Assembly: GCA_934490165.1 (NCBI GenBank)
Contig: CAKSTB010000008.1
Location: forward strand, 3,095 to 67,094
DNA length: 64,000 nucleotides
Source of the DNA: an uncultured Ruminiclostridium sp.
GTDB taxonomy: Bacteria > Bacillota > Clostridia > Oscillospirales > Ruminococcaceae
Direction of reading: 5' to 3'
Made by a program: the position numbers and the translations under genes. Position 1 is the first letter of the stretch; every line of letters starts with the position of its first letter. This document shows positions 2-52,881 of the stretch, in pieces. The notes beneath the pieces were generated by a model. It saw only the letters and a list, made by a program, of their open reading frames with translations, ran no database searches and had not been told where the DNA came from.

Positions 2-3000
2 ATGGTGGAGCAGAATGAGCTGATTTACTTTGAGACATATACCGGTCGCACCACAGGCAAAATAGCCGATGTAGGGACAGCTAACAGCCTGCAAAGCTTT
101 ATATCCAATAGCAACACCGCCTCGGACAGTTCACTGCCCAATGTGGATATAAGTGCTTTCAGCAACTATGCCTATATACAGGCTGTGGCATTTGACCCAT
201 ACGGCACGGGACGGCGCGACCACATCGTATATGTTGGTCTGAACCGCGGCGATCGAAAGGTATATGCCCATGTTTACGATGCGGTAAACAACCGTTTTGT
301 CGGCTCACAGGTAGTCGGCGAAATGGAGTGGATCTATGATAACAAAGGTAATCTTGTGGTGGAAAACTACTACTCCAACAACCTGATCACGGTTGCGGCG
401 GGTGACTTTGACAACGACGGTAAAGACACCATTATCGTCTATGTGCCGAACAGCAGTACCTCTATAGGGAAAATTTTCGATGTAAATAACTCCGAAAGGA
501 ATAATAATCTTGGCTGCTTTATCAAGGAATATTCCTTTGACAACGGCACCTTAACAATGCGTAGCAACACAGAAAACAGTCAGGGATACAACGAAATCGG
601 AGACAGGCTGCTTCACGATGAATATATCAAGCGGTATCATACACAAAACGGCGGGGGTACTTTGGATTATATCCGATCAAGTGATTCCGAATACAACCAT
701 ATTCGCAAACTGTATGTCCGAATGCGCGTCGGCGACTTTAACGGTGATGGCATTGACGATCTCGCCGTTTTATCTCTTCCTATCAGTGAGCTCGCGCGTG
801 AAGAGAATCTGGGTTATTTGACACCGCAGCTCAAGATAAAATATGGCACTAGGACGGGCTATAACTCAAATTTGTCTGACAGTATCGTCGATCAAAGAGC
901 CGACGAAGTTTACAATATAATGGATAAAACTCACCCGGACAGTAACGGCAAATATAGTGCTACGACCATCGACGCCGTTTCACTTGTCAGCGGCGACTTC
1001 AACAACGACGGCTACGAGGATCTCGCTGTTGTCGGAGTAGAAAAGAGCGGCACGGTAGACCCAAATAATTCCATATCGGCAATTATAGGAGGTCTTATAC
1101 TCCAGAATGAAGAAAAATTTGCATACTCTGTGCTTCTCAACAATCATAACAAGGGCTTTGCGCAAGGCGCTGTAAAGACCATGAACTCCAATAAATGGAC
1201 GCAGGAAAGTGGCGATGATAAGATTGTCATGTATACAACCGCAGAGGCGGTCGCTTTCGACGGCAGTACCGTAGCTGACTACCTCTTTCTCAATGGCTCA
1301 ATCTATACATACAACGCTACCGCAGGTCAATTTGATGCAGTTTCTTCCAAGGGCTATTCGGTGAGTGGATTCCAGTTCACCGATGGACTTGGCGGCAAGC
1401 AAGAATTGTTCCGCTCGGTTGCCGTGGGTAATTTTGACGGAAATACCGCCGGCAGAGAGCAGATCGTGTTTGTTGCTTCCTGCCGAGACAAGGACGATGT
1501 TTATTCCTTCAAAAAGGGTATGATCACCGGCGTATATAGCGATTCTAACGACGATTACAGCACTGCGACCGGCTTTAAAACAACACTCTCCGATTGGGGT
1601 CCGAACAAAGCAGACGGCGGTTATAAGGGCGGCGGTGCACAGGTACTGCTGACTGCCTGCGACCGTGATCAGGACGGCGTTATCGCACGATATAAGGGCG
1701 TGAGCTACGCCTACAGCGACCCCGAGGTCAAGGCAGTCATGCAGGCGGCGCCCTACTTTGCGGCACTGGGCGATTCGGCAAATAACGAGACCGACTATAC
1801 CATAACCGAAAGCTACGAGTTGGAGCAGTCCTCTTCAAAAAATGTTTCCTACAGCGTGGGTATGTCCTACAGCTACGGCGGACTGTTTGCGCCTTTTGAG
1901 TTGGAGATCTCTGCCGGCTATTCTCTTGAATGGAGCAAGAGCTTTTCCGAAGCACTGGAAACCGAATACGCCATGACCGTCAAGGCGCAGGCGTATAATA
2001 CGGCACTGGTTGCAAGAACGCCGGTATTTGTCTACTGCTATGAGGTGCTGAACGAAAACGGCGAGTGGTCGGACGAGACGGCAATAAGCCTGTCTATCCC
2101 ACAGCAGCCGGTGTATCAGCAGATGAGCATTGACGATTACAACAGCTTTGCCGAAGAATACAACTCCTATATGGAGAAAAAGGGCAATCGCGCCATCACT
2201 AAGGAGTCGGATAAGACCTCAAAAGACGAAGCCTGCTATTATCCCCTTGAGCAGATCAACGAAGAAGAAAACTGGCTGAACAGCAACGAGGGCAACCCTT
2301 ATATGTACAATCAGCTGGGCTGGGGCGCATACAGTGCACTCGGCGCTCAGCAGCTCAGCCAGAACACTATCCGTCTGGGCTATGCGGGAGGTCTGAATGA
2401 GGTTTCCTATTCAAAGAGCAATATCAAATCGGTTTCTGAGGAGATTTCTCACGGATTTTACTTCAACTTCTCCATCAGCTTCGGTGTATTCGGCGATGGT
2501 ATACTATTCTCGCATGATGTTGGTTTTGAAACCAGTCTGAGCTACAGCAACGGTTCGGGCGTTTCGACCACGAAAACCTCCTCGCAGGGTTGCATCGGTG
2601 CGGTAAACGATATTGACGGTCCTGCTCTTGCCGAGGAAGGAATCCCCGCAAGTATTTACACACAGTACACATTCGACTGGACGCTGGGACAGTGGTTCCG
2701 TCACCTCTACGGTGAGGAAGGCAACAAGACTGTCTTTATCGGCTACAGCCTATCAAATGTCAGCACACCCGCTCCTGCGGTAGATGATCTGGAAGCTGAA
2801 CTGTTCGCAGATGACGCAGTGCGCCTTACATGGTCTCAGCCCGACAAGACTCCCGGTTGGCCGGAGGTAGAGGGCTACTATGTGTACAGCATTGAAAACG
2901 GCGAGTATACGAAAATTTCCGAGATGCTCTCCGCCGACACGACCTCCTATGACATTGAAAACATGAAAACCAACACCGACTTTAGCTTTGTTGTTACCTC

Positions 3001-6000
3001 TGTTTGCAAGGTGGACGGCAAAGAAAATGAAAGCACATGGTCGAATATCGCCGAGGTTACAACGGCAAAGAAAGACTATAAGGTCAACTACTCTGTCGAT
3101 AACGAAGATGCCGCCGATATTAAGGTGCGCCATCTCGGTAATGTTGAGATCAAGTCGGGAGATGAGATAAGCGAGAGCGAGATCATCAAGGTAAAGGTCA
3201 CCCCAAAGAGCAAACTGTATGAGCTTGTATCCATGACGCTTGACAACGGCGGAGAATCAATGATATTCACGCCGGAAGCAGACGGAACTATCGAATGTGC
3301 CTTTACCCTGAACGGTGAAGCAAATATTCAGGTTTCAACCAAGCGTGCGGTAACTTCCGCTCAGGTCACATTTACCGATACATATACGGCGGACGGCGCG
3401 GTAATAGGTACGGTCAGTGCGACAGTGGGAGATGCTCCGCTGAGCGCTCCCGGCGGCACAGTCACCGATGATGTAACATTTGCCGCAGTACCGAAAAACG
3501 GCTACGGACTGAAATCGTGGAAGATCACCGATGCGGATAACAATACCGTAACCATAGATGCCGCAGGCTCAGACACCTATACTCTGAGATTGGCATCGGA
3601 AGAATACACTGTTGAAGCAGAATTTGCGTCTCTTTCCGAGATTGGCAAGCAGGTAAAGGTAAATATCCCCGCAGAGGGCGGTACAATAGAGATCACCGAC
3701 GCAAACGACGATATTATAGAGCTGAATGACAACAACAGCGTGTATGTTCCTGTTGATTGTGAACTGACATTCACTGTCAAAGCTGACGCAGACTGCAAAT
3801 TCCGCGCGTGGACAGGCGACGCCGAGGGTCAAAGCGGCGAGAGCTTCACTATGACTATTACAAAGGACACTGAGATCGGTGCAGAATTTGATGTTCCTGT
3901 CCGTCTGATGCTGACCTATTCTGCCGCAAGCGGCGAACAGACAGGTGCAGTGGCAACCAAGCAGGGTTATCAGTCGGGTACGGGTGTTATTGTCGGCACA
4001 AAAATTGTTCTTACCGCACAGGCGGCAGAAAATTACAGAGTGCAGAAGCTCGTCATTACCCGTGACGACAAGGTCGACACCATAACGACAGATGATAAGC
4101 TGTACAGTCAGTACGATTATGAAATCGTTATGGATACCAAAACCGACATTCAGGTATATTTCACCGAAATCGAGCAATATACGGTTACAGTAGACAGCAT
4201 CGAAAATGCCGATATGACTGTTAAAAATGGAAACGAAGATTTTGTAAGCGGTAATACCGTTCGCTACGGAGATGAGATCACCGTTACAGTAAAGCCGAAT
4301 GAAAACTACCGCCTTGCAGACACGGCTTCGTGGATCGACAACAACGACGGCAGTTATACCTATAAGACAGGTGCTGTCAAAGCGAATACAAACATCTCGG
4401 TAAAAATTGAGAAGATACCGGAATATACGGTTACATTCCCCACAACTATTGAGGGCTGTATCCTTTCGGTTAAAAACGGTAAAGAAAAGATCTCAAGCGG
4501 CGACAAGCTCCTTGAGGGAACACAGCTTACCGCTACCGTGACACTTGACCCGACCTTTATTCTCAAGGGCTGGTACATCGGCGGCGAACTGCTTTCCGAA
4601 ACAAACAAAAACGAAATAACATTTACTGTAGACAGCGATATACTCCTTACTGTCATAGTGACAGATGTAAAGGGCGATACAGGTGACACCGGAGTCGGTG
4701 TAAAATCCGTTGTCATTGACGAAGACGGAAAACTGATCATTACTCTGACCGATGACTCTGTACTTGATCTCGGAAAAGTAACAGGAGAAAAAGGCGATAC
4801 CGGCATAGGCGTTAAGTCGGTAACGGTTGACGAGGACGGAAACCTTATTATCACTCTGACCGACGACACCGTGCATAACGCAGGCAAGGTAACAGGAGAT
4901 AAAGGCAATCAAGGCGACAAGGGCGATACCGGTGCTACAGGCGTAGGTGTTAAGTCGGTAACTATCGACGAAGACGGAAACCTTATTATCACTCTTACTG
5001 ATGACACTGTGCATAATGCAGGCAAGGTAACCGGAGATAAAGGTGAACAAGGTGATAAGGGCGACAAAGGCGATATCGGTGCTACAGGTGTAGGTGTTAA
5101 ATCGGTAGTGATCGATGATGACGGAAACCTCATAATCACTCTGACTGATGATACAGTGCATAACCTCGGTAAGGTCACCGGAGATAAAGGCGAACAAGGC
5201 GATAAGGGCAACAACGGCGATAAAGGTGACAAGGGCGACAAGGGCGACAAGGGCGATACCGGTGCTACAGGCGTAGGCGTTAAATCGGTAACGATCGACG
5301 AAGACGGAAACCTTATTATCACCCTGACCGATGACACCGTGCATAACGCAGGCAAGGTTACGGGAAACAACGGTAACAATGGCGAAAACGGCGCTTGGGG
5401 AGTAGGCGTGAAGTCGATAACGATCGATGATGACGGAAACCTCATAATCACATTGACAGATGATACAATGTATAACCTCGGTAAGGTGACCGGAGTTAAG
5501 AACGAAAAAGGCGACAAGGGCGACACCGGAAACACCGGTGCTGACGGAATCGGCATTGCGAATGCTGTTGTAGATGAAAACGGTAATCTGATCATTACCC
5601 TGTCTGACGGCACTGTGCGCAACTTCGGCAAAATCACAGGAAACAACGGTGACAATGGCGAAAACGGCGCTACTGGCGTAGGCGTAAAATCGGTAACGGT
5701 CGACGAGGACGGAAACCTCATAATCACGCTGACCGATAACACAGTCCATAACGCCGGCAAGGTAATTGCAAGCAACGGTGAAAACGGTAAGAATGGCACT
5801 GACGGAGTCGGCATTGAGAATGCTGTTGTTGATGAAAACGGCAATCTGATCATTACACTGTCAGACGGTACTGTACACAACCTCGGCAAAGTCACCGGAG
5901 AAAAAGGTGACGCAGGCAAGGACGGTCAGGACGGTTCAAACGGCAACGGAATACAATCGGCTGATATTGATGCCGACGGCAATCTGATTATCACGTTTAC

Positions 6001-6319
6001 CGATGGCGTTGTTACCAATCTCGGTAAAATCGTCGGCACTGACGGCAAGAACGGTACTGACGGAAAAGACGGTAAGGACGGCGTTGACGGAAAGAACGGT
6101 ATCGGAATCAAGGGCTGCCGCATTGATGACAACGGCAACCTGATTCTGACACTGACTGACAGTACGACGTTGGACGCGGGCAATATTTCCGCTATCAGCG
6201 ACAACGTTAATGTTTCCAAGCCGCTTGCAACCGCGGCAGTATCCGTTGCGGGCACTTCTCTGCTCTGGAATGTCGTGAGCGTTGCGATCAGTATCATAAG
6301 AAAGAAAAAATTGGTCTGA
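2..6319 (+). CDS. Giant cell-surface protein, 5' end outside the window. Contains FG-GAP/VCBS-like repeats, an Fn3-like domain, InlB-B-repeat-like modules, a collagen-like repeat stalk and a C-terminal TM anchor.
   Basis: Uninterrupted 2105-codon ORF, open at the window start. FG-GAP/VCBS-type loops: GDFDNDGKDTIIV, GDFNGDGIDDLAV, GDFNNDGYEDLAV, GNFDGNTAGREQIVF. Fn3-like segment: AVRLTWSQPD...YYVYS...FSFVVTSV. Several ~70-aa modules end in the pattern G(Y/F)xxxxW (NGYGLKSWKI, CKFRAWTG, FILKGWYI). Gly-X-Y runs are present. The hydrophobic tail TAAVSVAGTSLLWNVVSVAISII is followed by RKKK. No canonical LPXTG. A hairpin terminator follows. Confidence 0.85.
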   Translation: MVEQNELIYFETYTGRTTGKIADVGTANSLQSFISNSNTASDSSLPNVDISAFSNYAYIQAVAFDPYGTGRRDHIVYVGLNRGDRKVYAHVYDAVNNRFVGSQVVGEMEWIYDNKGNLVVENYYSNNLITVAAGDFDNDGKDTIIVYVPNSSTSIGKIFDVNNSERNNNLGCFIKEYSFDNGTLTMRSNTENSQGYNEIGDRLLHDEYIKRYHTQNGGGTLDYIRSSDSEYNHIRKLYVRMRVGDFNGDGIDDLAVLSLPISELAREENLGYLTPQLKIKYGTRTGYNSNLSDSIVDQRADEVYNIMDKTHPDSNGKYSATTIDAVSLVSGDFNNDGYEDLAVVGVEKSGTVDPNNSISAIIGGLILQNEEKFAYSVLLNNHNKGFAQGAVKTMNSNKWTQESGDDKIVMYTTAEAVAFDGSTVADYLFLNGSIYTYNATAGQFDAVSSKGYSVSGFQFTDGLGGKQELFRSVAVGNFDGNTAGREQIVFVASCRDKDDVYSFKKGMITGVYSDSNDDYSTATGFKTTLSDWGPNKADGGYKGGGAQVLLTACDRDQDGVIARYKGVSYAYSDPEVKAVMQAAPYFAALGDSANNETDYTITESYELEQSSSKNVSYSVGMSYSYGGLFAPFELEISAGYSLEWSKSFSEALETEYAMTVKAQAYNTALVARTPVFVYCYEVLNENGEWSDETAISLSIPQQPVYQQMSIDDYNSFAEEYNSYMEKKGNRAITKESDKTSKDEACYYPLEQINEEENWLNSNEGNPYMYNQLGWGAYSALGAQQLSQNTIRLGYAGGLNEVSYSKSNIKSVSEEISHGFYFNFSISFGVFGDGILFSHDVGFETSLSYSNGSGVSTTKTSSQGCIGAVNDIDGPALAEEGIPASIYTQYTFDWTLGQWFRHLYGEEGNKTVFIGYSLSNVSTPAPAVDDLEAELFADDAVRLTWSQPDKTPGWPEVEGYYVYSIENGEYTKISEMLSADTTSYDIENMKTNTDFSFVVTSVCKVDGKENESTWSNIAEVTTAKKDYKVNYSVDNEDAADIKVRHLGNVEIKSGDEISESEIIKVKVTPKSKLYELVSMTLDNGGESMIFTPEADGTIECAFTLNGEANIQVSTKRAVTSAQVTFTDTYTADGAVIGTVSATVGDAPLSAPGGTVTDDVTFAAVPKNGYGLKSWKITDADNNTVTIDAAGSDTYTLRLASEEYTVEAEFASLSEIGKQVKVNIPAEGGTIEITDANDDIIELNDNNSVYVPVDCELTFTVKADADCKFRAWTGDAEGQSGESFTMTITKDTEIGAEFDVPVRLMLTYSAASGEQTGAVATKQGYQSGTGVIVGTKIVLTAQAAENYRVQKLVITRDDKVDTITTDDKLYSQYDYEIVMDTKTDIQVYFTEIEQYTVTVDSIENADMTVKNGNEDFVSGNTVRYGDEITVTVKPNENYRLADTASWIDNNDGSYTYKTGAVKANTNISVKIEKIPEYTVTFPTTIEGCILSVKNGKEKISSGDKLLEGTQLTATVTLDPTFILKGWYIGGELLSETNKNEITFTVDSDILLTVIVTDVKGDTGDTGVGVKSVVIDEDGKLIITLTDDSVLDLGKVTGEKGDTGIGVKSVTVDEDGNLIITLTDDTVHNAGKVTGDKGNQGDKGDTGATGVGVKSVTIDEDGNLIITLTDDTVHNAGKVTGDKGEQGDKGDKGDIGATGVGVKSVVIDDDGNLIITLTDDTVHNLGKVTGDKGEQGDKGNNGDKGDKGDKGDKGDTGATGVGVKSVTIDEDGNLIITLTDDTVHNAGKVTGNNGNNGENGAWGVGVKSITIDDDGNLIITLTDDTMYNLGKVTGVKNEKGDKGDTGNTGADGIGIANAVVDENGNLIITLSDGTVRNFGKITGNNGDNGENGATGVGVKSVTVDEDGNLIITLTDNTVHNAGKVIASNGENGKNGTDGVGIENAVVDENGNLIITLSDGTVHNLGKVTGEKGDAGKDGQDGSNGNGIQSADIDADGNLIITFTDGVVTNLGKIVGTDGKNGTDGKDGKDGVDGKNGIGIKGCRIDDNGNLILTLTDSTTLDAGNISAISDNVNVSKPLATAAVSVAGTSLLWNVVSVAISIIRKKKLV
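4670..6190 (+). repeat. 11 in-frame tandem units: a ~32-aa module (GVGVKSVTIDEDGNLIITLTDDTVHNAGKVTG) alternating with variable-length collagen-like Gly-X-Y linkers (GDKGEQGDKGDKGDTGAT and similar).
   Basis: I counted 11 module copies in the translation. Several units are near-identical at the nucleotide level, for example around 4920-5050 versus 5260-5345. Gly-X-Y linker length varies from about 4 to about 10 triplets. Confidence 0.9.
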
Positions 6320-6378
6320 GCGTAATTGAGGCTTCCGTTGAAGCAGTGCATCATGTACGATAAGAAAATATGAAGGAA

Positions 6379-6425
6379 CACCGCCGCACAGAAAGTAGCT
6401 TCTCTATGCGGCGGTGTTTACTGTT
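6379..6425 (+). terminator. Rho-independent terminator of the giant surface-protein gene.
   Basis: 10-bp GC-rich stem CACCGCCGCA (6379-6388) / TGCGGCGGTG (6407-6416), followed by TTTACTGTTT. Confidence 0.7.
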
Positions 6426-6438
6426 TGATTTTATTGAG

Positions 6439-6998
6439 ATGGCATTGATTTTTAGTATGATGAGGTTTCTTGAAAGCCGCCTGCACGACCTTCAGCGCAG
6501 TGTGGAGGAGATGCGCCTGCGGCTTATGAAGCCGTCCAGTATCTCGGTACAGATGATGAACCTGCCGTCCGTTACCTGCCGTATGCACTGGTGCAAGTGT
6601 CTTACCACCGCAGAACGATACACGGAAATGTACGCATTTTACAGCGAGTGCGTCCGCAAGGGTTGCTTACTTTCCGACGAGCCGCTCTTCGCTATTATGG
6701 ATCGTAAGGACTACCTGGAAGGCTATATAGGCGATACGCCCTACCCCAATGCGGTATGTGTGCCCGTTCGCCCGAACAAGGCGGCGGCAGATGCGGTCGT
6801 ACTGCCGGAATGTCGGGTGCTGTCGGTATTGTACAGCGGCATTGACGAAGCTTGGCTGGCACTCGGACGTGAAGCAAAAGCCCGCGGTCTGAAGCCTGTA
6901 GCTCCGCCCGTGTACTCGGAATAGTAGCCCAATATACAGGCAGAGAGATCGACACCAGCCGCTACTGCTCCCGCATCGTACTGCCTGTTGAGGAATGA
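6439..6998 (+). pseudogene. Remnant of a MerR/BmrR-type regulator. It keeps the coiled-coil and the GyrI-like effector domain, has no HTH, and has a frameshift near the 3' end.
   Basis: The translation begins in a coiled-coil-like segment (LESRLHDLQRSVEEMRLRL), followed by a GyrI-like pattern (VQMMNLPSVTCRMHW..., VCVPV, LPECRVLSVLYSGIDEAW). The 5' part of the listed ORF (from 6370) overlaps the upstream terminator, so an N-terminal HTH cannot be encoded. After the stop at 6922-6924, the expected domain end (IVAQYTGREIDTSRYCSRIVLPVEE*) continues in another frame from 6924 to 6998. Confidence 0.45.
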
Positions 6999-10466: not shown

Positions 10467-10598
10467 AAAGATGAAATCACTTTGTGATGAGATCTGCCTT
10501 TTGGCAGGAGAAAGACGGATTTGATTTTCAAGTACCATTATTCACATATAAGAGAAAACGGACAACGGCAAGTATCAACTTACCATTGTCAGTTTATA

Positions 10599-11768
10599 TT
10601 ACTTATTTGCGATATACCCGTTAATTCCTTTTTTCAGCCTTTCAAGGCCGTCATTCAGCACCGAATGCGGGCAAGCAATATTAAGTCTTAAGAACAGATT
10701 TCCGTTACCTCTGTATGCCGCTCCCGCCGAAAGATACAACCCTGTTTCTTTTCTTATGAAGGAGGCGAGTTCCTTGCTGTTATCTGTTAATGCCGATACA
10801 TCGAGCCACATAAGATAGGTAGCATCGCTGTGCAGTGCTTTCACCTGCGGGATATTCTCTTCCAGAAAGCGGTACACAGTTTGCTTGCTTTCCGACAGAT
10901 ATTCATTCAGACTGTCGAGCCACTCGCCGCCGTCCGTCAGTGCCGCAATTGCCGCCGTCATCGCAAATACATTGGGCTCGGCGCATTCATCGGTATTTAT
11001 CGCTCTCCACACCTTGTGGCGAAGTCTTGGCGACGGAACGCTTATTGCCGCCGTCTGAAGTCCGGCTATATTAAACGCCTTTGTCGGAGAGATAAGCGTT
11101 ATACTGTTATCTCTGCATTCGTCATTTATGCTTGCAAACGGAACATATCGCTTTCCGGGCTCGGTAATGTCGCAGTGTATCTCATCGGATATAACCGTAA
11201 CGCCGTACCTTATGCACAGCTCCCCGACCTTTTCAAGCTCTTCCCTGCTCCATATTCTGCCCGACGGATTTTGCGGATTGCAAAGTATCATAAGCGTTGT
11301 CTGAGGATCGGCAAGTTTTTGCTCAAGATCGTCATAATCCATACAGTAATTGCCGCTTTCATATACAAGTTTATTGTCCAGAACCTGTCTGCCGTTGTTC
11401 TCAATACAGTTGCAGAAAATATTGTATACCGGTGTTTGTACCACTACCTTTTCGGCAGGAGTGGTAATTTTTCTCACAATTGATGATATGGCAGGGATCA
11501 CGCCGGTGCAGAACATCAACCAGTCTTTATGAAGCTCTATTCCGTGACGTGACTTCCACCATGATATATATGCGTCGTACCACTCATCGGGTATTATCGT
11601 GTAGCCGAATATTCCGTGCTTTGCCCGCTGCTCTACTGCCGAGGTGATACACGGCGCGGTTTTAAAATCCATATCAGCCACCCACATAGGCAGCTCACCG
11701 TCTTTGATATCCCACTTGAGCGAATATGTGCCCGAGCGGTCGTTTATCTCATCAAAATCAAATTCCAT
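10599..11768 (-). CDS. MalY/PatB-family PLP-dependent C-S lyase (cystathionine beta-lyase-like aminotransferase class I/II).
   Basis: N-terminus MEFDFDEINDRSGTYSLKWD is typical of the family. The PLP-lysine motif SPTKAFNIAGLQ is present. 389 aa. Confidence 0.85.
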   Translation of the reverse strand: MEFDFDEINDRSGTYSLKWDIKDGELPMWVADMDFKTAPCITSAVEQRAKHGIFGYTIIPDEWYDAYISWWKSRHGIELHKDWLMFCTGVIPAISSIVRKITTPAEKVVVQTPVYNIFCNCIENNGRQVLDNKLVYESGNYCMDYDDLEQKLADPQTTLMILCNPQNPSGRIWSREELEKVGELCIRYGVTVISDEIHCDITEPGKRYVPFASINDECRDNSITLISPTKAFNIAGLQTAAISVPSPRLRHKVWRAINTDECAEPNVFAMTAAIAALTDGGEWLDSLNEYLSESKQTVYRFLEENIPQVKALHSDATYLMWLDVSALTDNSKELASFIRKETGLYLSAGAAYRGNGNLFLRLNIACPHSVLNDGLERLKKGINGYIANK

Positions 11769-11841: not shown

Positions 11842-12714
11842 TTACGCACAGCCCTTTGAGCCTTTGCCGCCGCAGTTATCACGGCATATTATTGTTGTTT
11901 TTGACGGATCGACCTTGTCCGGTTCTATCGTCAATTCACCTATCGAGTCGGCTGTAATCCTGCCCTGAGAGGGATTGAGCACGCTGTCTACACTACCCGT
12001 TATGTCCGCATTTACGGACGAATACTCAAATGCGAGCGTAGTATTGAGCAGCTTGCAGTTTTTCAGCGTCAGGTGCTCAATGTAGCACAGTCCCTGCAGG
12101 CTTTCGATCGTACAGTCGATAAGCGTCAGGTTTTCGGCATTCCAACCGAGATATTCTCCCGAAATAAACGAATTTCTAACGGTCACGTTTTTGCTGTTCC
12201 AGAATGCGTCCTTGCTGAGAAGCTTTGAATTGCTTATCACCACGTTCTCCGCACCGTCAAAGCAATAGTTTCCGTACAGTGTAAGTCCGTCTATTCGCAT
12301 ATTCTTGCAGTTCATCGCAAAGTAATCGCCTTTTGCCGAAACCTTGTCGAGCCTTACATTATTGCAGTTCCAAAGCGTTTCTGCGGCATTTGCAAACGAT
12401 ACGTTTTCAAGCGTAAGTCCGTTGCAACGGCGGAAGTTTTTCGGAGCTTCGATAAGGCAGTCACTGACCTTTATATCATCTGTGTACCACACGCCTGCCC
12501 TTGCATTCTCAAACCACGTCGTATTGCTTACAGCGATATGCTTTGAATACCACAGCGGGTACTTCCAGCGGAACATACTGCCGTCAAGCTCTATATTTCT
12601 GCACTCTTTGAGCGGTGATTCGCCGTCGGCAAATATCGAATCCTTTATCGAAAGGTCGCACGAGCCGAACAGCGCGCGCTCACCGGTAAAATAACCGCGT
12701 TCAATATTTTTCAT
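11842..12714 (-). CDS. Right-handed beta-helix repeat protein. From memory it resembles the DUF3737 family.
   Basis: 290 aa with a repetitive ~22-aa pattern rich in N/C/L/F (NVSFANAAETLWNCNNVRLDKVSAKGDYFAMNCKNMRIDGL...). The family label is recalled, not searched. Confidence 0.6.
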   Translation of the reverse strand: MKNIERGYFTGERALFGSCDLSIKDSIFADGESPLKECRNIELDGSMFRWKYPLWYSKHIAVSNTTWFENARAGVWYTDDIKVSDCLIEAPKNFRRCNGLTLENVSFANAAETLWNCNNVRLDKVSAKGDYFAMNCKNMRIDGLTLYGNYCFDGAENVVISNSKLLSKDAFWNSKNVTVRNSFISGEYLGWNAENLTLIDCTIESLQGLCYIEHLTLKNCKLLNTTLAFEYSSVNADITGSVDSVLNPSQGRITADSIGELTIEPDKVDPSKTTIICRDNCGGKGSKGCA

Positions 12715-12745
12715 ATCGGCACCTCTTTTCTTTCTGTCCTTCTGT

Positions 12746-12776
12746 ATTGTATCACATGGAGTTCACTCCAAGTCAA
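12746..12776 (-). promoter_or_regulatory. MerR-type promoter/operator, copy 1, reading leftward into 11842-12714.
   Basis: On the minus strand: TTGACT (12776-12771), a 19-nt spacer containing the dyad TGGAGT-GA-ACTCCA (12757-12770), then TACAAT (12751-12746). About 31 nt separate the -10 from the ATG at 12714. A near-identical copy sits at 48379-48409. Confidence 0.6.
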
Positions 12777-12848
12777 GAGGTTTTGCGAAAAAAGTCGGAA
12801 TATTTACGAAAATCTTATCCGAAAGCGCATAAAAACATAAAATTTTGC

Positions 12849-12877
12849 TTGACAAACCCAGCTCTTTGTGCTACAAT
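12849..12877 (+). promoter_or_regulatory. Sigma70-type promoter of ssrA.
   Basis: TTGACA (12849-12854), 17-nt spacer, TACAAT (12872-12877), 14 nt upstream of the tmRNA 5' end. Confidence 0.65.
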
Positions 12878-12891
12878 AATTATCCAAACAA

Positions 12892-13242
12892 GGGGCCGTA
12901 AAGGTTTCGACGGGGGTTGTGAACCCGGCTAAGCACGCAGAGATCGCCTTATCTCTTTAAACGGGGCATTTTTAAAATTAAACGCAGACAATAGATCTGA
13001 ATTAGTAGCTGCCTAAGTGCGCTACCGTCCTTGTAGAGAGCGCTGTGGCTCTATAAAGGGCGTCGACTAACAGCCAATGTTTTCGGTGAGAGTCCTGTAA
13101 CCGTCAACACATCAAAGGACTACCGGACTTCTATCCTGTGAGTCGGAGCGGAGAAAGGGAATTTCAAAAGACTTCACTAAGCGTGTAGAAAGGTTGGCGG
13201 ATCGGTTTTCGGACAGGAGTTCGATTCTCCTCGGCTCCACCA
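12892..13242 (+). ncRNA. ssrA: tmRNA (transfer-messenger RNA).
   Basis: The 5' end is GGGGCCGTAAAGGTTTCGACGGGGG. The 3' end is GGACAGGAGTTCGATTCTCCTCGGCTCCACCA, a tRNA-Ala-like T arm and acceptor. The internal tag frame is GCA GAC AAT AGA TCT GAA TTA GTA GCT GCC TAA (12984-13016), giving ADNRSELVAA. A terminator hairpin and T-run follow. Confidence 0.9.
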
Positions 13243-13288
13243 TTTTTTCCACGCTCATATATATGGGTGTGGAATTTTTTGTGTACGG
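13229..13288 (+). repeat. Direct repeat copy 1 (attL-like): the last 14 nt of ssrA plus its terminator region.
   Basis: CCTCGGCTCCACCATTTTTTCCACGCTCATATATATGGGTGTGGAATTTTTTG recurs, with a few changes, at 14091-14152. Confidence 0.8.
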
Positions 13289-48225: not shown

Positions 48226-48378
48226 GTGTTATTTTAGTTTAGATTTTTGGTATGTAATAAGTATAACATAAAATAATGAAAAATCAATCGAAAAAAGGTT
48301 ACAATTTGGTAACAATTTCATCAGTAGCTGTAATTCAATAAGATAAAAAATTATTTTTAAAAATTTTTCAAAAAACTC

Positions 48379-48409
48379 TTGACTTGGAGTGAACTCCATG
48401 TGATACAAT
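48379..48409 (+). promoter_or_regulatory. MerR-type promoter/operator, copy 2, reading rightward into the dxs-like gene.
   Basis: TTGACT (48379-48384), a 19-nt spacer with the dyad TGGAGT-GA-ACTCCA (48385-48398), then TACAAT (48404-48409). The 41-nt core differs from copy 1 at one position. Weaker similarity extends about 45 nt upstream. Confidence 0.6.
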
Positions 48410-48507
48410 ACGTTCGTAACAAACAAAAAAGCAGCGCTTAGCGTATTTATACGCACCGTCACGAGCGCTCAGCAATCTATAATTATAAGGAAAAGGAGAA
48501 AAAGAAA

Positions 48508-50265
48508 ATGTACCTTGAAAAAATCAACTCACCTGCCGATGTAAAGAAGCTCAGCACAGAAGAAATGAAAAAGCTTGCGCAGGAAATGCGCGATGCGCTT
48601 ATATTCAAGCTCAGTCGTCACGGCGGACACTGCGGTCCTAACCTCGGTTTTGTAGAAGCTACTATCGCACTGCACTATGTTTTCGATTCACCTACGGATA
48701 AAATGGTGTTCGACGTATCCCACCAGACATATTGTCATAAGATGCTGACCGACAGAAAGGACGGCTTCCTTTACGAAGAGCATTTTGATGATATTTCCGG
48801 CTACTCAAACCCCCGCGAAAGCGAGCATGACTTCTTCACAATAGGTCATACCTCAACTTCCGTGAGTCTTGCGCTCGGCCTTGCAAAGGCAAGGGATTTA
48901 AAGCATGAAAACGGAAATGTCATTGCCGTTATCGGTGACGGTTCGCTCAGCGGCGGCGAAGCTCTCGAAGCGCTCGACTACGCAGGAGAATTTGACGGAA
49001 ATCTTATTGTGGTAATAAACGATAACGATATGTCTATCGCCGAAAACCACGGCGGTATGTACAAGAACTTAAAGGCTCTGCGCGACGGCAACGGCAAGGC
49101 GGACACAAACCTCTTCACCGCTATGGGTCTTGACTATGTATTTGTTAAGGACGGCAACGATATCGACAGCCTTATTGCCGCTTTCGGTAAGGTCAAGGAC
49201 AGCAAGCGTCCGGTTGCTCTGCATATCGTGACCGAAAAGGGTAAGGGGCTCTCTTACGCCGAGGAAAACAAGGAAGACTGGCACTGGCATATGCCGTTTG
49301 ACATTGAAACAGGCAAGGCAAAGTACAATTATGACGGCGAGGATTACGGCGACCTTACAGCAAAAATGCTACTCGACAAAATGAAAAAGGACGAAAAGGT
49401 ATGCGTTCTGACTTCCGGCACTCCAACCGTTGCGGGCTTCTGGAAAGGCAGAAGAGATGAAGCAGGCAAGCAGTTTATCGATGTCGGCATTGCAGAAGAA
49501 AATGCGGCTGCAATGGCATCGGGCATAGCAACAGGCGGCGGAAAGCCTTTCTACGGCGTTTACAGCACATTCATCCAGCGTACCTACGACCAGATCTCAC
49601 AGGATATCTGCATAAACAACAGTCCTGTCGCAATAAGCGTATTTGCAGGATCTGTCTACGGTATGAGCGATGTTACACATCTCGGTCTTTATGACATTCC
49701 TATGCTGTCAAACATTCCGAACCTTGTATACCTTGCCCCCGCAACAAAGGAAGAATATCTTTCTATGATCGACTGGGCTATAGAGCAGAATGAACACCCC
49801 GTTGCTGTCCGTGTACCCGGCGGTGCGGTAGTTTCGGACGGCAAGGAAGTAAAGAACGACTGGTCGGATCTTAACAAGTATGAAATCACAAAGAACGGCT
49901 CAAAGATCGCCGTAATAGCACTCGGTGCATTCTATCAGCTCGGCGAAAAAGCCGCAAAGCTTATCGAAGAAAAGACAGGCACAGCGCCCACGCTTATCAA
50001 TCCTCACTATATCACAGGTATTGACAAGGAAATGCTCGAAAACCTCAAGAAAAACCACAATGTTGTGATCACGCTTGAGGACGGCGTTCTTGAGGGCGGC
50101 TTCGGCGAGAAGATCGCACGCTTCTACGGCGACAGCGATATAAAGACGCTCTGCTTCGGACTTGACAAGAAGTTCTACGACAGATACGATGTAAACGAGC
50201 TTATGCGTGAGGCTCACCTGACACCCGAACAGATAGCCGAAGACGCAACAGCTCTTCTGAAGTAA
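48508..50265 (+). CDS. dxs: 1-deoxy-D-xylulose-5-phosphate synthase-like transketolase-family enzyme, a short and divergent form.
   Basis: N-terminus MYLEKINSPADVKKLSTEEMKKLAQEMR. ThDP motif GDGSLSGGEALEALDYAG...NDN. Pyrimidine-binding and C-terminal transketolase domains are present. At 585 aa and with HGGHCGPNLG it differs from the canonical Dxs I recall, so paralogue status is possible. Confidence 0.75.
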   Translation: MYLEKINSPADVKKLSTEEMKKLAQEMRDALIFKLSRHGGHCGPNLGFVEATIALHYVFDSPTDKMVFDVSHQTYCHKMLTDRKDGFLYEEHFDDISGYSNPRESEHDFFTIGHTSTSVSLALGLAKARDLKHENGNVIAVIGDGSLSGGEALEALDYAGEFDGNLIVVINDNDMSIAENHGGMYKNLKALRDGNGKADTNLFTAMGLDYVFVKDGNDIDSLIAAFGKVKDSKRPVALHIVTEKGKGLSYAEENKEDWHWHMPFDIETGKAKYNYDGEDYGDLTAKMLLDKMKKDEKVCVLTSGTPTVAGFWKGRRDEAGKQFIDVGIAEENAAAMASGIATGGGKPFYGVYSTFIQRTYDQISQDICINNSPVAISVFAGSVYGMSDVTHLGLYDIPMLSNIPNLVYLAPATKEEYLSMIDWAIEQNEHPVAVRVPGGAVVSDGKEVKNDWSDLNKYEITKNGSKIAVIALGAFYQLGEKAAKLIEEKTGTAPTLINPHYITGIDKEMLENLKKNHNVVITLEDGVLEGGFGEKIARFYGDSDIKTLCFGLDKKFYDRYDVNELMREAHLTPEQIAEDATALLK

Positions 50266-50472
50266 GCAATGTAAATTCAGCAAGAAATATGACAAGCGCC
50301 CCGTGATTTAATCGGTCATGGGGCGTTTTTCCTCGCCCTGCAAGCATTCAGAAAAGCGGAAAACGCAGATAATCAGGAAAGACTTACAATTATTAGACAC
50401 ATTCTATTGACTTGAACATCAAAAAGGTTTATACTTATATAATGACGAAGAGCAGAAAAGGGGTGTGATATT

Positions 50473-52881
50473 GTGAGCAATTCAAAACAGAAAAGTGCCC
50501 GGATACTTGTTGTTGACGACTCTGCGATAAACCGCGAGATGCTCAGCGATATGCTGATAGAAGATTACGATATAACAGAAGCGGCAAATGGTGAGGAAGC
50601 ACTGAATATTCTTAAAGAACACGTATACGATATTGACCTTGTACTGCTTGATATAATAATGCCGGTGATGGACGGCTTCGGCGTACTTGAAGTAATGAAG
50701 CAATATCACTGGTTAGACGATACTCCGGTAATAATGATATCTACCGAAACGTCACGCAGCTTCATACGCAAGGCTTATGAGCTCGGAATTACAGACTATG
50801 TCCGCAGACCGTTTGACAGCTTTGTCATTCACAAGCGCGTATCTAACACCCTTATGCTGTACCGCAAGCAGAAAAAGCTGATCGGTGCGCTTGAAGAGCA
50901 GGTTTATGAAAACGAAAAAAACAACCGTATGATGATAAACGTTCTGGCTCATATAGTCGAATTCAGAAACGGCGAAAGCGGTATGCACGTTCATCACATA
51001 AAACAGCTTACGGCTATCCTTCTGCAAAAGCTGATGGAAAAGACCGACAAGTATCACCTTACGGAAAACGATCTGCTTCTGATAAGCACCGCCTCTTCCC
51101 TGCATGATATCGGCAAAATATCGATCGATGACAATATTCTCAATAAGCCGGGAAAGCTGACTGCAGAAGAATTTGAGATAATGAAAACGCATTCGGTTAT
51201 CGGTGCGGAAATGCTGCACGATCTGCACGAAACACATAACTACCCGCTTTTCGATAAGGCTTACGAAATATGCCGATGGCATCACGAAAGATATGACGGC
51301 AGAGGCTATCCCGATGGACTTATGGGTGAGGAGATACCGATAGCCGCACAGGTAACGGCTCTAGCCGATGTATATGACGCTCTGACAAGCAACAGATGCT
51401 ACAAGAAGGCTTACTCCCACAAAAAAGCGATGGAAATGATACTCGACGGTCAATGCGGCGCTTTCAACCCCTTGCTCCTCGAGTGTCTTAAAGAGTGTGA
51501 AAGTCAGATACTTGCCGAGCTTACAGACAAACTTGATAATACGCAGGACGACAGGCTTCTCCTGCGTGCTACCGAGGAGCTGGTCGAAAACAAAGTTTCT
51601 TCCGAAACGCTAAATATCAATTCTCATCTGCCTATTCCTGCAAGAGAACGCTGGAACTTCTTCTCTTCAGGCTCGGGTGAGATACAGTTTGAATACGATG
51701 CAGTGCTCGACGTGTTGAGACTCACATCGCAAGGTGCAGAACAGCTCGGACTTCAGGAAATGACAATGCACCCTAAAGGACTGAGACAAAACTATATCGG
51801 TGAAGACACTATAAACGAAATGCTTGAGTGCATAAATAACGCTTCTCCGACCGCTCCTACAGTCAGCATGAAAACACAGCTTGATCTGACAGGTCAGAAA
51901 CGGTGGTATGAAATACGCATACGCACTCTCTGGAACAATGAAGAGTACCCGCGGTACATAGGCGTTCTCGGCAGGATAATAGACATCAATGACCGTGAGC
52001 TTGCAATTGTGCACCCCGAATACAGGCTCAGTGCCGATGAGGACGGCGAGATAAGAGAAACAATAAACAGGCTTACAAATGTATTTGACGTTGTAAGGCT
52101 GGTGGATATAACCGATAATGAAGTGGTAAGATCCGGTTGTAAAGAGGGCAACGAGGATATGATCGATGTCTGCCGCGGTCAGAAATGCTACGCCATCTGG
52201 GGCAAGACGCAGCGTTGTAAAAACTGTGTGTCGGCTAAGGCTTTTGAAAAGCGCGGTCAGATGAGCAAGCTCGAATTTGCCGACGACAGCATATATCAGA
52301 TCATATCAAAATACGTTGAGATAAGCGGCAAGCCGTTCATACTCGAAATGATATATAAGGATAAAGACGGTGTACTGCTCGGCGCATACGGCAAAACCGA
52401 CTTTATGGATAATATAGTGAATTACAACCGTCAGCTGTATCACGACGCACTGACAGGCGCATATAACCGCCGTTATTATGAAGAGCAGACCAAGTCAATG
52501 CGGTACATAGACGCAGTCGCAATGCTTGACGCAAACGACTTCAAAGCGATAAACGACCGCTACGGACACGCCGCAGGCGACTGTGTACTCAGAGCAGTGT
52601 GCGAGAGCATCAGGAGCTGTATAAGAAGCAGCGATATCCTTATACGCCTGGGCGGTGATGAATTTGTGCTGCTGATGACCAATATTCCCGAAAAAATATT
52701 CCATCAGAAGCTCAAAGAAATAAAACAAAGCATATCTGAGATAAAATTTGAAGATTATCCCGATATAAATTGCACTGCCGCTATCGGCGGTGTATACGGC
52801 ATACAGCCGATAGAAAAAGCGTTAGCCGAGGCGGACAGACTTATGTACATTGATAAAAACGCCTCAAAGGAGGAAAAATGA
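50473..52881 (+). CDS. Multidomain c-di-GMP enzyme: receiver, HD-GYP, Cys-containing sensor-like domain, GGDEF.
   Basis: REC: ILVVDDSAINR...LLDIIMPVMDG. HD-GYP: LHDIGK...HHERYDGRGYPDGL. Cys motif CRGQKCYAIWGKTQRCKNCVSAKAF. GGDEF site RLGGDEF with I-site RSSD. Confidence 0.9.
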   Translation: MSNSKQKSARILVVDDSAINREMLSDMLIEDYDITEAANGEEALNILKEHVYDIDLVLLDIIMPVMDGFGVLEVMKQYHWLDDTPVIMISTETSRSFIRKAYELGITDYVRRPFDSFVIHKRVSNTLMLYRKQKKLIGALEEQVYENEKNNRMMINVLAHIVEFRNGESGMHVHHIKQLTAILLQKLMEKTDKYHLTENDLLLISTASSLHDIGKISIDDNILNKPGKLTAEEFEIMKTHSVIGAEMLHDLHETHNYPLFDKAYEICRWHHERYDGRGYPDGLMGEEIPIAAQVTALADVYDALTSNRCYKKAYSHKKAMEMILDGQCGAFNPLLLECLKECESQILAELTDKLDNTQDDRLLLRATEELVENKVSSETLNINSHLPIPARERWNFFSSGSGEIQFEYDAVLDVLRLTSQGAEQLGLQEMTMHPKGLRQNYIGEDTINEMLECINNASPTAPTVSMKTQLDLTGQKRWYEIRIRTLWNNEEYPRYIGVLGRIIDINDRELAIVHPEYRLSADEDGEIRETINRLTNVFDVVRLVDITDNEVVRSGCKEGNEDMIDVCRGQKCYAIWGKTQRCKNCVSAKAFEKRGQMSKLEFADDSIYQIISKYVEISGKPFILEMIYKDKDGVLLGAYGKTDFMDNIVNYNRQLYHDALTGAYNRRYYEEQTKSMRYIDAVAMLDANDFKAINDRYGHAAGDCVLRAVCESIRSCIRSSDILIRLGGDEFVLLMTNIPEKIFHQKLKEIKQSISEIKFEDYPDINCTAAIGGVYGIQPIEKALAEADRLMYIDKNASKEEK

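Follow-up and report, generated by a model that had tools for sequence, protein, structure and literature searches.

Why do a gene for a DUF3737 protein and a gene for a Dxs paralogue (Dxs2), on opposite strands of one contig, stand behind almost the same promoter, and what would read it? The window analysed here, the whole stretch of 64,000 nucleotides (G000:C8:3095-67094), belongs to an assembly of 2.74 Mb in 38 contigs with 45% G+C. Our analysis suggests, with a probability of roughly 85%, that the two sites are operator-promoters of an NmlR/AdhR-like regulator of the MerR family, a protein of 124 aa encoded on another contig.

The preliminary description of this DNA had reported two copies of a 41-nt core with a single mismatch, each reading TTGACT, a 19-nt spacer and TACAAT, with the dyad TGGAGT-GA-ACTCCA in the spacer. 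Both copies bear this out, and the mismatch is C versus A, five bases 5' of the -35 element. The coordinates given for the plus-strand core (48371-48411) were right, whereas the minus-strand core occupies 12744-12784 and had been placed one base off, at 12743-12783. Read from 12784 to 12744 the minus strand gives AAAAC-CTC-TTGACT-(19 nt)-TACAAT-AC, with A at the fifth base of the plus-strand copy, and both copies carry a TG extended -10 that had escaped the preliminary description. A pattern search with the 20-mer TTGACTTGGAGTGAACTCCA returned two matches in the window, at 12757-12776 (minus) and 48379-48398 (plus), and none in 100 dinucleotide shuffles with up to three mismatches permitted. 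The weaker similarity said to continue for about 45 nt further upstream dissolved on inspection: over 50 nt beyond the core 15 of 50 positions are identical, which is chance level, and other promoter pairs share 15-20 of 50 positions upstream of the core in A/T-rich DNA. Neither promoter was called by a sigma-70 scan with spacers of 16-18 nt, because the spacer measures 19 nt. Compared with Rfam at E up to 1, the 98-nt dxs2 leader matched no known RNA, riboswitches included. The tmRNA gene ssrA (Rfam RF00023, 158 bits; 12892-13242, plus) is oriented divergently from the DUF3737 promoter and has its own near-consensus promoter, TTGACA-17-TACAAT plus TG, at 12849-12877 and a terminator hairpin at 13247-13274.

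Table 1. Features of the four putative regulon units; coordinates are those of the window unless a contig or locus is named.
Feature	Position	Strand	Basis or remark
Promoter-operator of DUF3737-patB	12744..12784	-	sequence, pattern search
-35 TTGACT (DUF3737-patB promoter)	12771-12776	-	
20-bp operator ACTTGGAGTGAACTCCATGT (DUF3737-patB promoter)	12754-12773	-	
TG extended -10 (DUF3737-patB promoter)	12753-12754	-	
-10 TACAAT (DUF3737-patB promoter)	12746-12751	-	
Putative transcription start, DUF3737-patB	~12739	-	
DUF3737 protein, 290 aa (unit 1, first operon gene)	11842..12714	-	Pfam PF12541, 432 bits
PatB-family C-S lyase, 389 aa (unit 1, second operon gene)	10599..11768	-	NCBIfam TIGR04350, 421 bits, cut-off 340
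Terminator-like hairpin, 13 pairs and T-rich tail, directly 3' of patB	10561..10590	-	
Promoter-operator of the Dxs paralogue	48371..48411	+	sequence, pattern search
-35 TTGACT (dxs2 promoter)	48379-48384	+	
20-bp operator (dxs2 promoter)	48382-48401	+	
-10 TACAAT (dxs2 promoter)	48404-48409	+	
Putative transcription start, dxs2	~48416	+	leader ~90 nt
Dxs2, 585 aa, ThDP enzyme (unit 2)	48508..50265	+	NCBIfam PRK12315, 910 bits
Cupin-CMD-flavodoxin-like operon (unit 3)	contig C2, locus L003		
124-aa MerR-family gene nmlR (unit 4)	contig C1, L004:1559-1933		

Searching the whole genome revealed exactly four such promoters. The 2.74 Mb contain four perfect TGGAGTnnACTCCA dyads against about 0.16 expected by chance for 12 fixed bases (our own estimate), and all four stand in the same register within TTGAC(T/A)-19 nt-TA(C/A)(A/T)AT promoters that face a gene. 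A position matrix derived from sites in related genomes retrieved only these four, at 46-56 bits, with everything else at or below 18 bits. The promoter of DUF3737-patB is the top match in the genome (55.9 bits) and that of dxs2 reaches 53.3 bits; the two window copies fit the family-wide consensus aaaa-n-c-n-C-TTGACt-TGGAGT-nn-ACTCCA-gGtg-n-TAnaaT better than any other site in the genome, down to its A-tract and the C that precedes the -35. The 19-nt spacer is present at all four genomic sites and the TG extended -10 at three. The site of nmlR itself is a perfect 20-bp palindrome, ACATGGAGTTAACTCCATGT, whose end lies 27 nt before the start codon.

That last gene also suggests which regulator is at hand. 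A six-frame search of the whole genome with PF13411 (MerR_1) gave one match, nmlR, so that the list of MerR-family genes has a single MerR_1 entry, on a contig other than that of the window. A MerR remnant had been proposed within the window at 6439-6998, but the frame given contains stops and lacks Pfam support; the open reading frame covering most of that interval (6370-6924, plus, 184 aa) matches nothing in Pfam at E up to 0.01, nor could a MerR helix-turn-helix be detected in it. Just before it, an open reading frame of more than 2100 aa (2-6319, plus) begins at base 2 of the window, may extend upstream of it, and has many tandem repeats of about 35 residues joined by collagen-like G-x-x stretches (GDKGDTG and similar), with a hydrophobic anchor at the C-terminus.

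NmlR of Haemophilus influenzae and Neisseria and AdhR (YraB) of B. subtilis are thiol-based regulators that respond to formaldehyde, methylglyoxal and nitrosative stress, and class III alcohol dehydrogenase is their classic target. The best NCBIfam model for the 124-aa protein is NmlR, at 149.2 bits and below the equivalog cut-off of 175 (NF041849), and the protein aligns along its length with the H. influenzae NmlR (HiNmlR) structures 5e01 and 5d8c. In the 5e01 alignment its Cys52 stands opposite Cys54 of HiNmlR; the residue is kept in 17/17 aligned orthologues and in 22/22 wider homologues, and Cys44 is a second conserved cysteine within the closer clade. Among the four residues with which HiNmlR reads DNA, Arg20 is kept while Phe21 is replaced by Tyr, Lys24 by Arg and Tyr17 by Asp, and the recognition code should therefore be related to that of HiNmlR, not identical to it. 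Judged by profile and alignment, the regulator is NmlR/AdhR-like, not ZntR-like; we write 'NmlR/AdhR-like' instead of 'NmlR' because adhC/adhA is not in the regulon and the score falls below the equivalog cut-off. The preliminary description had called the regulon stress- or metal-responsive, and of these the stress part is upheld while the metal part is not, since profile and alignment make the regulator NmlR/AdhR-like with a thiol-sensor cysteine. The protein ends about 10 residues past the dimerisation helix, with tails that are not conserved among orthologues. In this species the tail reads CSPECCSKK (cysteines C116-x3-C120-C121), is missing from the aligned orthologues, and may have a role in binding a metal or another ligand here.

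The pairing of operator and regulator extends well beyond this genome. Among 120 further genomes sampled from the family, 18 contain the motif when up to one mismatch is tolerated, and none contains the control pattern, which is the motif reversed. A TAnnnT hexamer stands exactly 19 nt past the -35 at 32/32 family sites, all but one of which have an open reading frame downstream, and 12 loci of other genomes have an NmlR orthologue (49-69% identity) in first or second place downstream of the site. In named genomes, at least 597 loci were seen to encode regulator relatives; the 80 best of these, which also take in Blautia and Adlercreutzia, were examined. The strict promoter pattern, TTGACn-T(G/A)GAG(T/C)-nn-(A/G)CTC(C/T)A-N5-TAnnnT upstream on the same strand, is present at at least 44 of the 80 best, in several phyla (among them Clostridium, Paenibacillus, Pelosinus, Dielma, Christensenella and Chloroflexi MAGs), frequently 50-60 nt before the regulator gene; a relaxed form occurs at about 15 further loci among the 80. 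The proposal of a small stress regulon with MerR-type promoters and a regulator that is not adjacent is supported by these comparisons.

The comparative set also defines the extent of the operator. The search pattern fixed the 19-nt spacing and placed no constraint on the right-hand bases of positions 9 and 10; over the 96 distinct sites that it gathered, symmetry holds at position 9 (C/G) in 72/96 and at position 10 (A/T) in 62/96 and is lost at position 11 (2/96). The operator thus comes out as a palindrome of 20 bp, a length in line with the two half-sites of 9-10 bp described for the family (PMC5001606); it shares its outer three bases with the end of the -35 and, across the 96 sites, overlaps that element by only these 3 nt. 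In Clostridioides difficile (L111, OX244046.1) a regulator orthologue with 64% identity has a relaxed site, TTGACT-TGAAGTTAACTCTA-agtag-TAAAGT, about 1.3 kb upstream, a distance that probably places the regulator inside an operon there. Another genome of the same genus (G018) has neither regulator nor sites and keeps DUF3737-patB, which implies that control by the regulator is recent or variable.

The genes behind these sites form a recurring set. DUF3737 and dxs2 had been taken for unrelated genes, a description that the comparison overturns, as they cluster in another genome and each is tied to the regulator in other taxa. Dxs2, DUF3737, PatB, CMD, cupin and flavodoxin are all found co-clustered with the regulator elsewhere. 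In most of 14 loci of other genomes (L069-L082) dxs2 is linked to an NmlR-type regulator; an NmlR-like gene lies directly upstream on the same strand at L069, L071, L072, L074 and L075, and L070, L072, L074 and L080 have a promoter whose 19-nt spacer carries the dyad T(G/A)GAGTnnACTC(C/T)A. At L079 a divergent merR faces dxs2-CMD-cupin-flavodoxin, L077 has the order flavodoxin-cupin-dxs2, and L076, from a different family, carries genes for Fe-ADH, CMD, MerR, Dxs2, DUF3737 and PatB head to tail on one strand. At L073 (G327:C12), all that stands between a 19-nt-spacer MerR-type promoter and dxs2 is the final ~30 codons of an NmlR-like gene, which looks like the outcome of a deletion that took out most of the regulator gene. 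On the DUF3737 side, a site precedes a homologue with 36% identity in G087 (L058), an NmlR orthologue lies immediately 5' of a homologue in G035 (L057), and Clostridium hydrogenum (L109) has the order site-patB-DUF3737-nmlR. The five closest DUF3737 orthologues in the family (62-68% identity) have no site, and membership of the regulon must therefore vary by lineage.

In relatives the commonest motif target is an aldo-keto reductase fused to 4Fe-4S domains; the targets there also include FMN reductases, CMD proteins, cupins, DUF362 and DUF3842 proteins, an ECF S-component and Fe-ADH. Aldo-keto reductase-4Fe-4S fusions, FMN reductases, CMD, cupin and Fe-ADH fit a role in electrophile detoxification. 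The four targets of the present genome include no alcohol dehydrogenase, whether class III or adhC/adhA, and no estD, and no metal efflux pump or metal-binding protein was found among the targets here or in relatives. At L026 (G035:C42) a one-mismatch site precedes genes for a chloramphenicol-phosphotransferase-like (CPT-like) kinase and a CsoR/FrmR-family repressor, an arrangement suggestive of cross-talk linking two sensors of electrophiles or metals.

Several other explanations of the two sites were weighed against this body of evidence. A metal-responsive regulon of the ZntR/CadR/CueR kind could draw on the cysteine-rich tail of the regulator (C116-x3-C120-C121) and on the shape of the operator, which the preliminary description likened to that of E. 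coli ZntR; such a likeness would reflect a general operator shape common to the whole MerR family. The tail, however, is missing from orthologues that have the same operator, no C-terminal cysteines are kept throughout the clade, and the targets noted above, in this genome as in relatives, include nothing for metal efflux or metal binding. The profile scores point the same way, with CueR, ZntR, CadR and MerR at 49-66 bits (CueR 66, ZntR 58) against cut-offs of 143-168, compared with 149 for NmlR, and we regard metal control as extremely unlikely. That the window copies are near-identical by descent, as a recently duplicated or transplanted promoter cassette or as members of a dispersed repeat, is in our judgement very unlikely, even though they share 40/45 core positions with each other and 32-34/45 with the other two genomic sites. 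Only four copies exist in the genome, every one positioned as a promoter, so the 41-mer is not a dispersed repeat, the outcome that would have undone the preliminary description. Moreover, identity between the copies ends at the edges of the functional core, and no repeat termini or mobile genes lie nearby. As the two copies are also the ones that fit the family-wide consensus best, selection for a strong site explains their likeness with no need for duplication.

It is also conceivable, if very improbable, that the regulator binds the dyad and does nothing but repress or block the road, with a constitutive extended -10 driving transcription and no distortion of the DNA. Three of the four sites do carry a TG extended -10, which could yield substantial activity without an activator, and MerR-family proteins repress when resting (PMC5001606). 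Yet a plain repressor needs no such fixed spacing, whereas the 19-nt distance is kept at all 32 family sites and is built into the 96-site pattern, and a fixed over-long spacing is the hallmark of the MerR activation mechanism (PMC5001606).

The preferred reading, an NmlR/AdhR-like switch, can be set out as a working mechanism. That the regulator binds, that it activates by distorting the DNA, and what signal it answers are here drawn by analogy from the MerR family. Its members have spacers of 19-20 bp, quasi-palindromes of 19-20 bp made of two half-sites of 9-10 bp, and an essential Cys54/Cys52, and NmlR-type operators extend into the -35 (PMC5001606). Here, a dimer of the regulator would occupy the 20-bp palindrome, with the consensus ACTTGGAGT-nn-ACTCCAAGT, which would fill the 19-nt spacer and reach over the final three bases of the -35. 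The over-long spacer would leave the promoter poorly aligned for RNA polymerase until a reactive electrophile modified Cys52, and possibly Cys44 too, whereupon the modified dimer would untwist the DNA and turn transcription on. Likely triggers would be aldehydes, quinones, and nitrosative or thiol stress. The switch would thereby govern an autoregulated regulon of four units: nmlR, cupin-CMD-flavodoxin, DUF3737-patB and the Dxs paralogue. The presence of a CMD protein, YraC, in the AdhR regulon of B. subtilis (PMC4776306) offers a precedent for one of these targets.

The first window target, the DUF3737 protein, had been described as a DUF3737-like beta-helix, and both its PF12541 match and an AlphaFold2 model built with 27 sequences agree: the model is a right-handed beta-helix with a pLDDT of 93. 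Foldseek searches of the PDB turned up nothing more specific than beta-helix proteins in general (alginate epimerases, tailspikes, polygalacturonases and pentapeptide-repeat proteins), with TM no higher than 0.49 and identity no higher than 15%, and so provided no functional lead. The family has three invariant cysteines and many invariant aromatic and charged residues. No mention of DUF3737 was found in the literature searched. No terminator was found between DUF3737 and patB, and the pair is conserved at L040, L041, L043, L076 and L109.

The second target had been described as a divergent Dxs-like enzyme. It is Dxs-like; it is better regarded as a distinct paralogue than as a divergent version, since a canonical Dxs is encoded elsewhere in the genome. 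That canonical Dxs (contig C1, 598 aa) is 32-48% identical to Dxs2, and has E. coli Dxs (PDB 2o1s) as its best structural relative. A canonical-type Dxs accompanies Dxs2 in 6/6 genomes tested (this one and five others). Dxs2 is rare, occurring in 3/120 genomes of the family and 10/398 of the class. A multiple alignment of 15 Dxs2-type proteins, with E. coli numbering transferred through the alignment of the canonical Dxs to 2o1s, showed no change at the positions of H49, E370, R398 and H431 in any of the 15. R420 is replaced in all 15 (by A, S, W, C, T, M, G, Y or F), as is R478 (by G, A, E, C, I, S or N), and both arginines are present in the canonical Dxs of this genome. In E. coli Dxs, R420 and R478 are reported to be important for binding D-GAP, and DXP synthase also takes other aldehydes, nitroso compounds and O2 (bioRxiv 10.1101/2025.03.03.641193). 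The closest solved relative of Dxs2, PDB 9kpq (about 65% identical by eye), is itself of the Dxs2 type and was named DXP synthase by its depositors; our search for a paper describing it returned unrelated papers only. Annotation pipelines would likewise name Dxs2-type proteins DXP synthase despite the lost arginines. No paper linking dxs with NmlR or AdhR was found in the literature searched. Directly after dxs2, at 50473-52881 (plus), lies a gene whose product joins a response regulator to HD-GYP-type (HD_5) and GGDEF domains. This gene has a promoter-like site of its own (50407-50435), and no terminator was detected in the gap that separates it from dxs2.

We infer an accessory role for Dxs2 as a ThDP enzyme, possibly with an acceptor other than D-GAP. 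A more specific reading, which we offer tentatively and hold to be possible though doubtful, is that Dxs2 may be a stress-induced ThDP carboligase and not a DXP synthase, whose acceptor would be some reactive, non-phosphorylated aldehyde or a different electrophile, and that together with DUF3737, PatB, CMD, cupin and a flavodoxin-like protein it could form a conserved, hitherto undescribed electrophile-detoxification module of anaerobes switched by an NmlR-like thiol sensor. Such a reading is allowed because R420 and R478 are lost in 15/15 proteins, a canonical Dxs is present in 6/6 genomes, and clusters with the regulator are seen repeatedly.

As a regulatory device the system is textbook MerR/NmlR biology, and it is the content of the regulon that is new relative to the literature searched. 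The widespread DUF3737 family is now tied to a putative thiol-based electrophile sensor, and so is a 'Dxs' paralogue that lacks the D-GAP-binding arginines and is annotated as DXP synthase. This provides a testable hypothesis for two unexplained gene families of gut and environmental anaerobes; C. difficile, which carries a regulator orthologue, is a genetically tractable species. The operator model, a 20-bp palindrome with a 19-nt spacer, can be used for regulon prediction across many taxa.

In summary, the system described here shares parts with three known ones. With E. coli ZntR and its target zntA it has in common a MerR-family promoter with a dyad inside an over-long spacer, and it differs from ZntR in its low profile score, in having no conserved metal-binding loop and in having no metal transporter as target. 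Dxs2 resembles canonical DXP synthase (E. coli, 2o1s) in belonging to the three-domain ThDP fold family and in its catalytic residues, and departs from E. coli Dxs in the replacement of both D-GAP-binding arginines. The closest likeness is to NmlR/AdhR, shared in the small size of the MerR protein, which appears to have no large sensor domain, an invariant cysteine (Cys54/Cys52), probable autoregulation, a 19-nt-spacer promoter and perhaps an operator that reaches into the -35, here by 3 nt (PMC5001606), to which B. subtilis AdhR adds a CMD-family protein in the regulon (PMC4776306). Unlike NmlR/AdhR, the present regulator scores below the equivalog cut-off, has changed the DNA-contact residues Tyr17 and Lys24, conserves Cys44 as a second cysteine in its closer clade, and has no adhC/adhA or estD target. 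In place of those targets it would control a Dxs paralogue, DUF3737-PatB and cupin-CMD-flavodoxin in this genome, and aldo-keto reductase-ferredoxin fusions and FMN reductases in its relatives.
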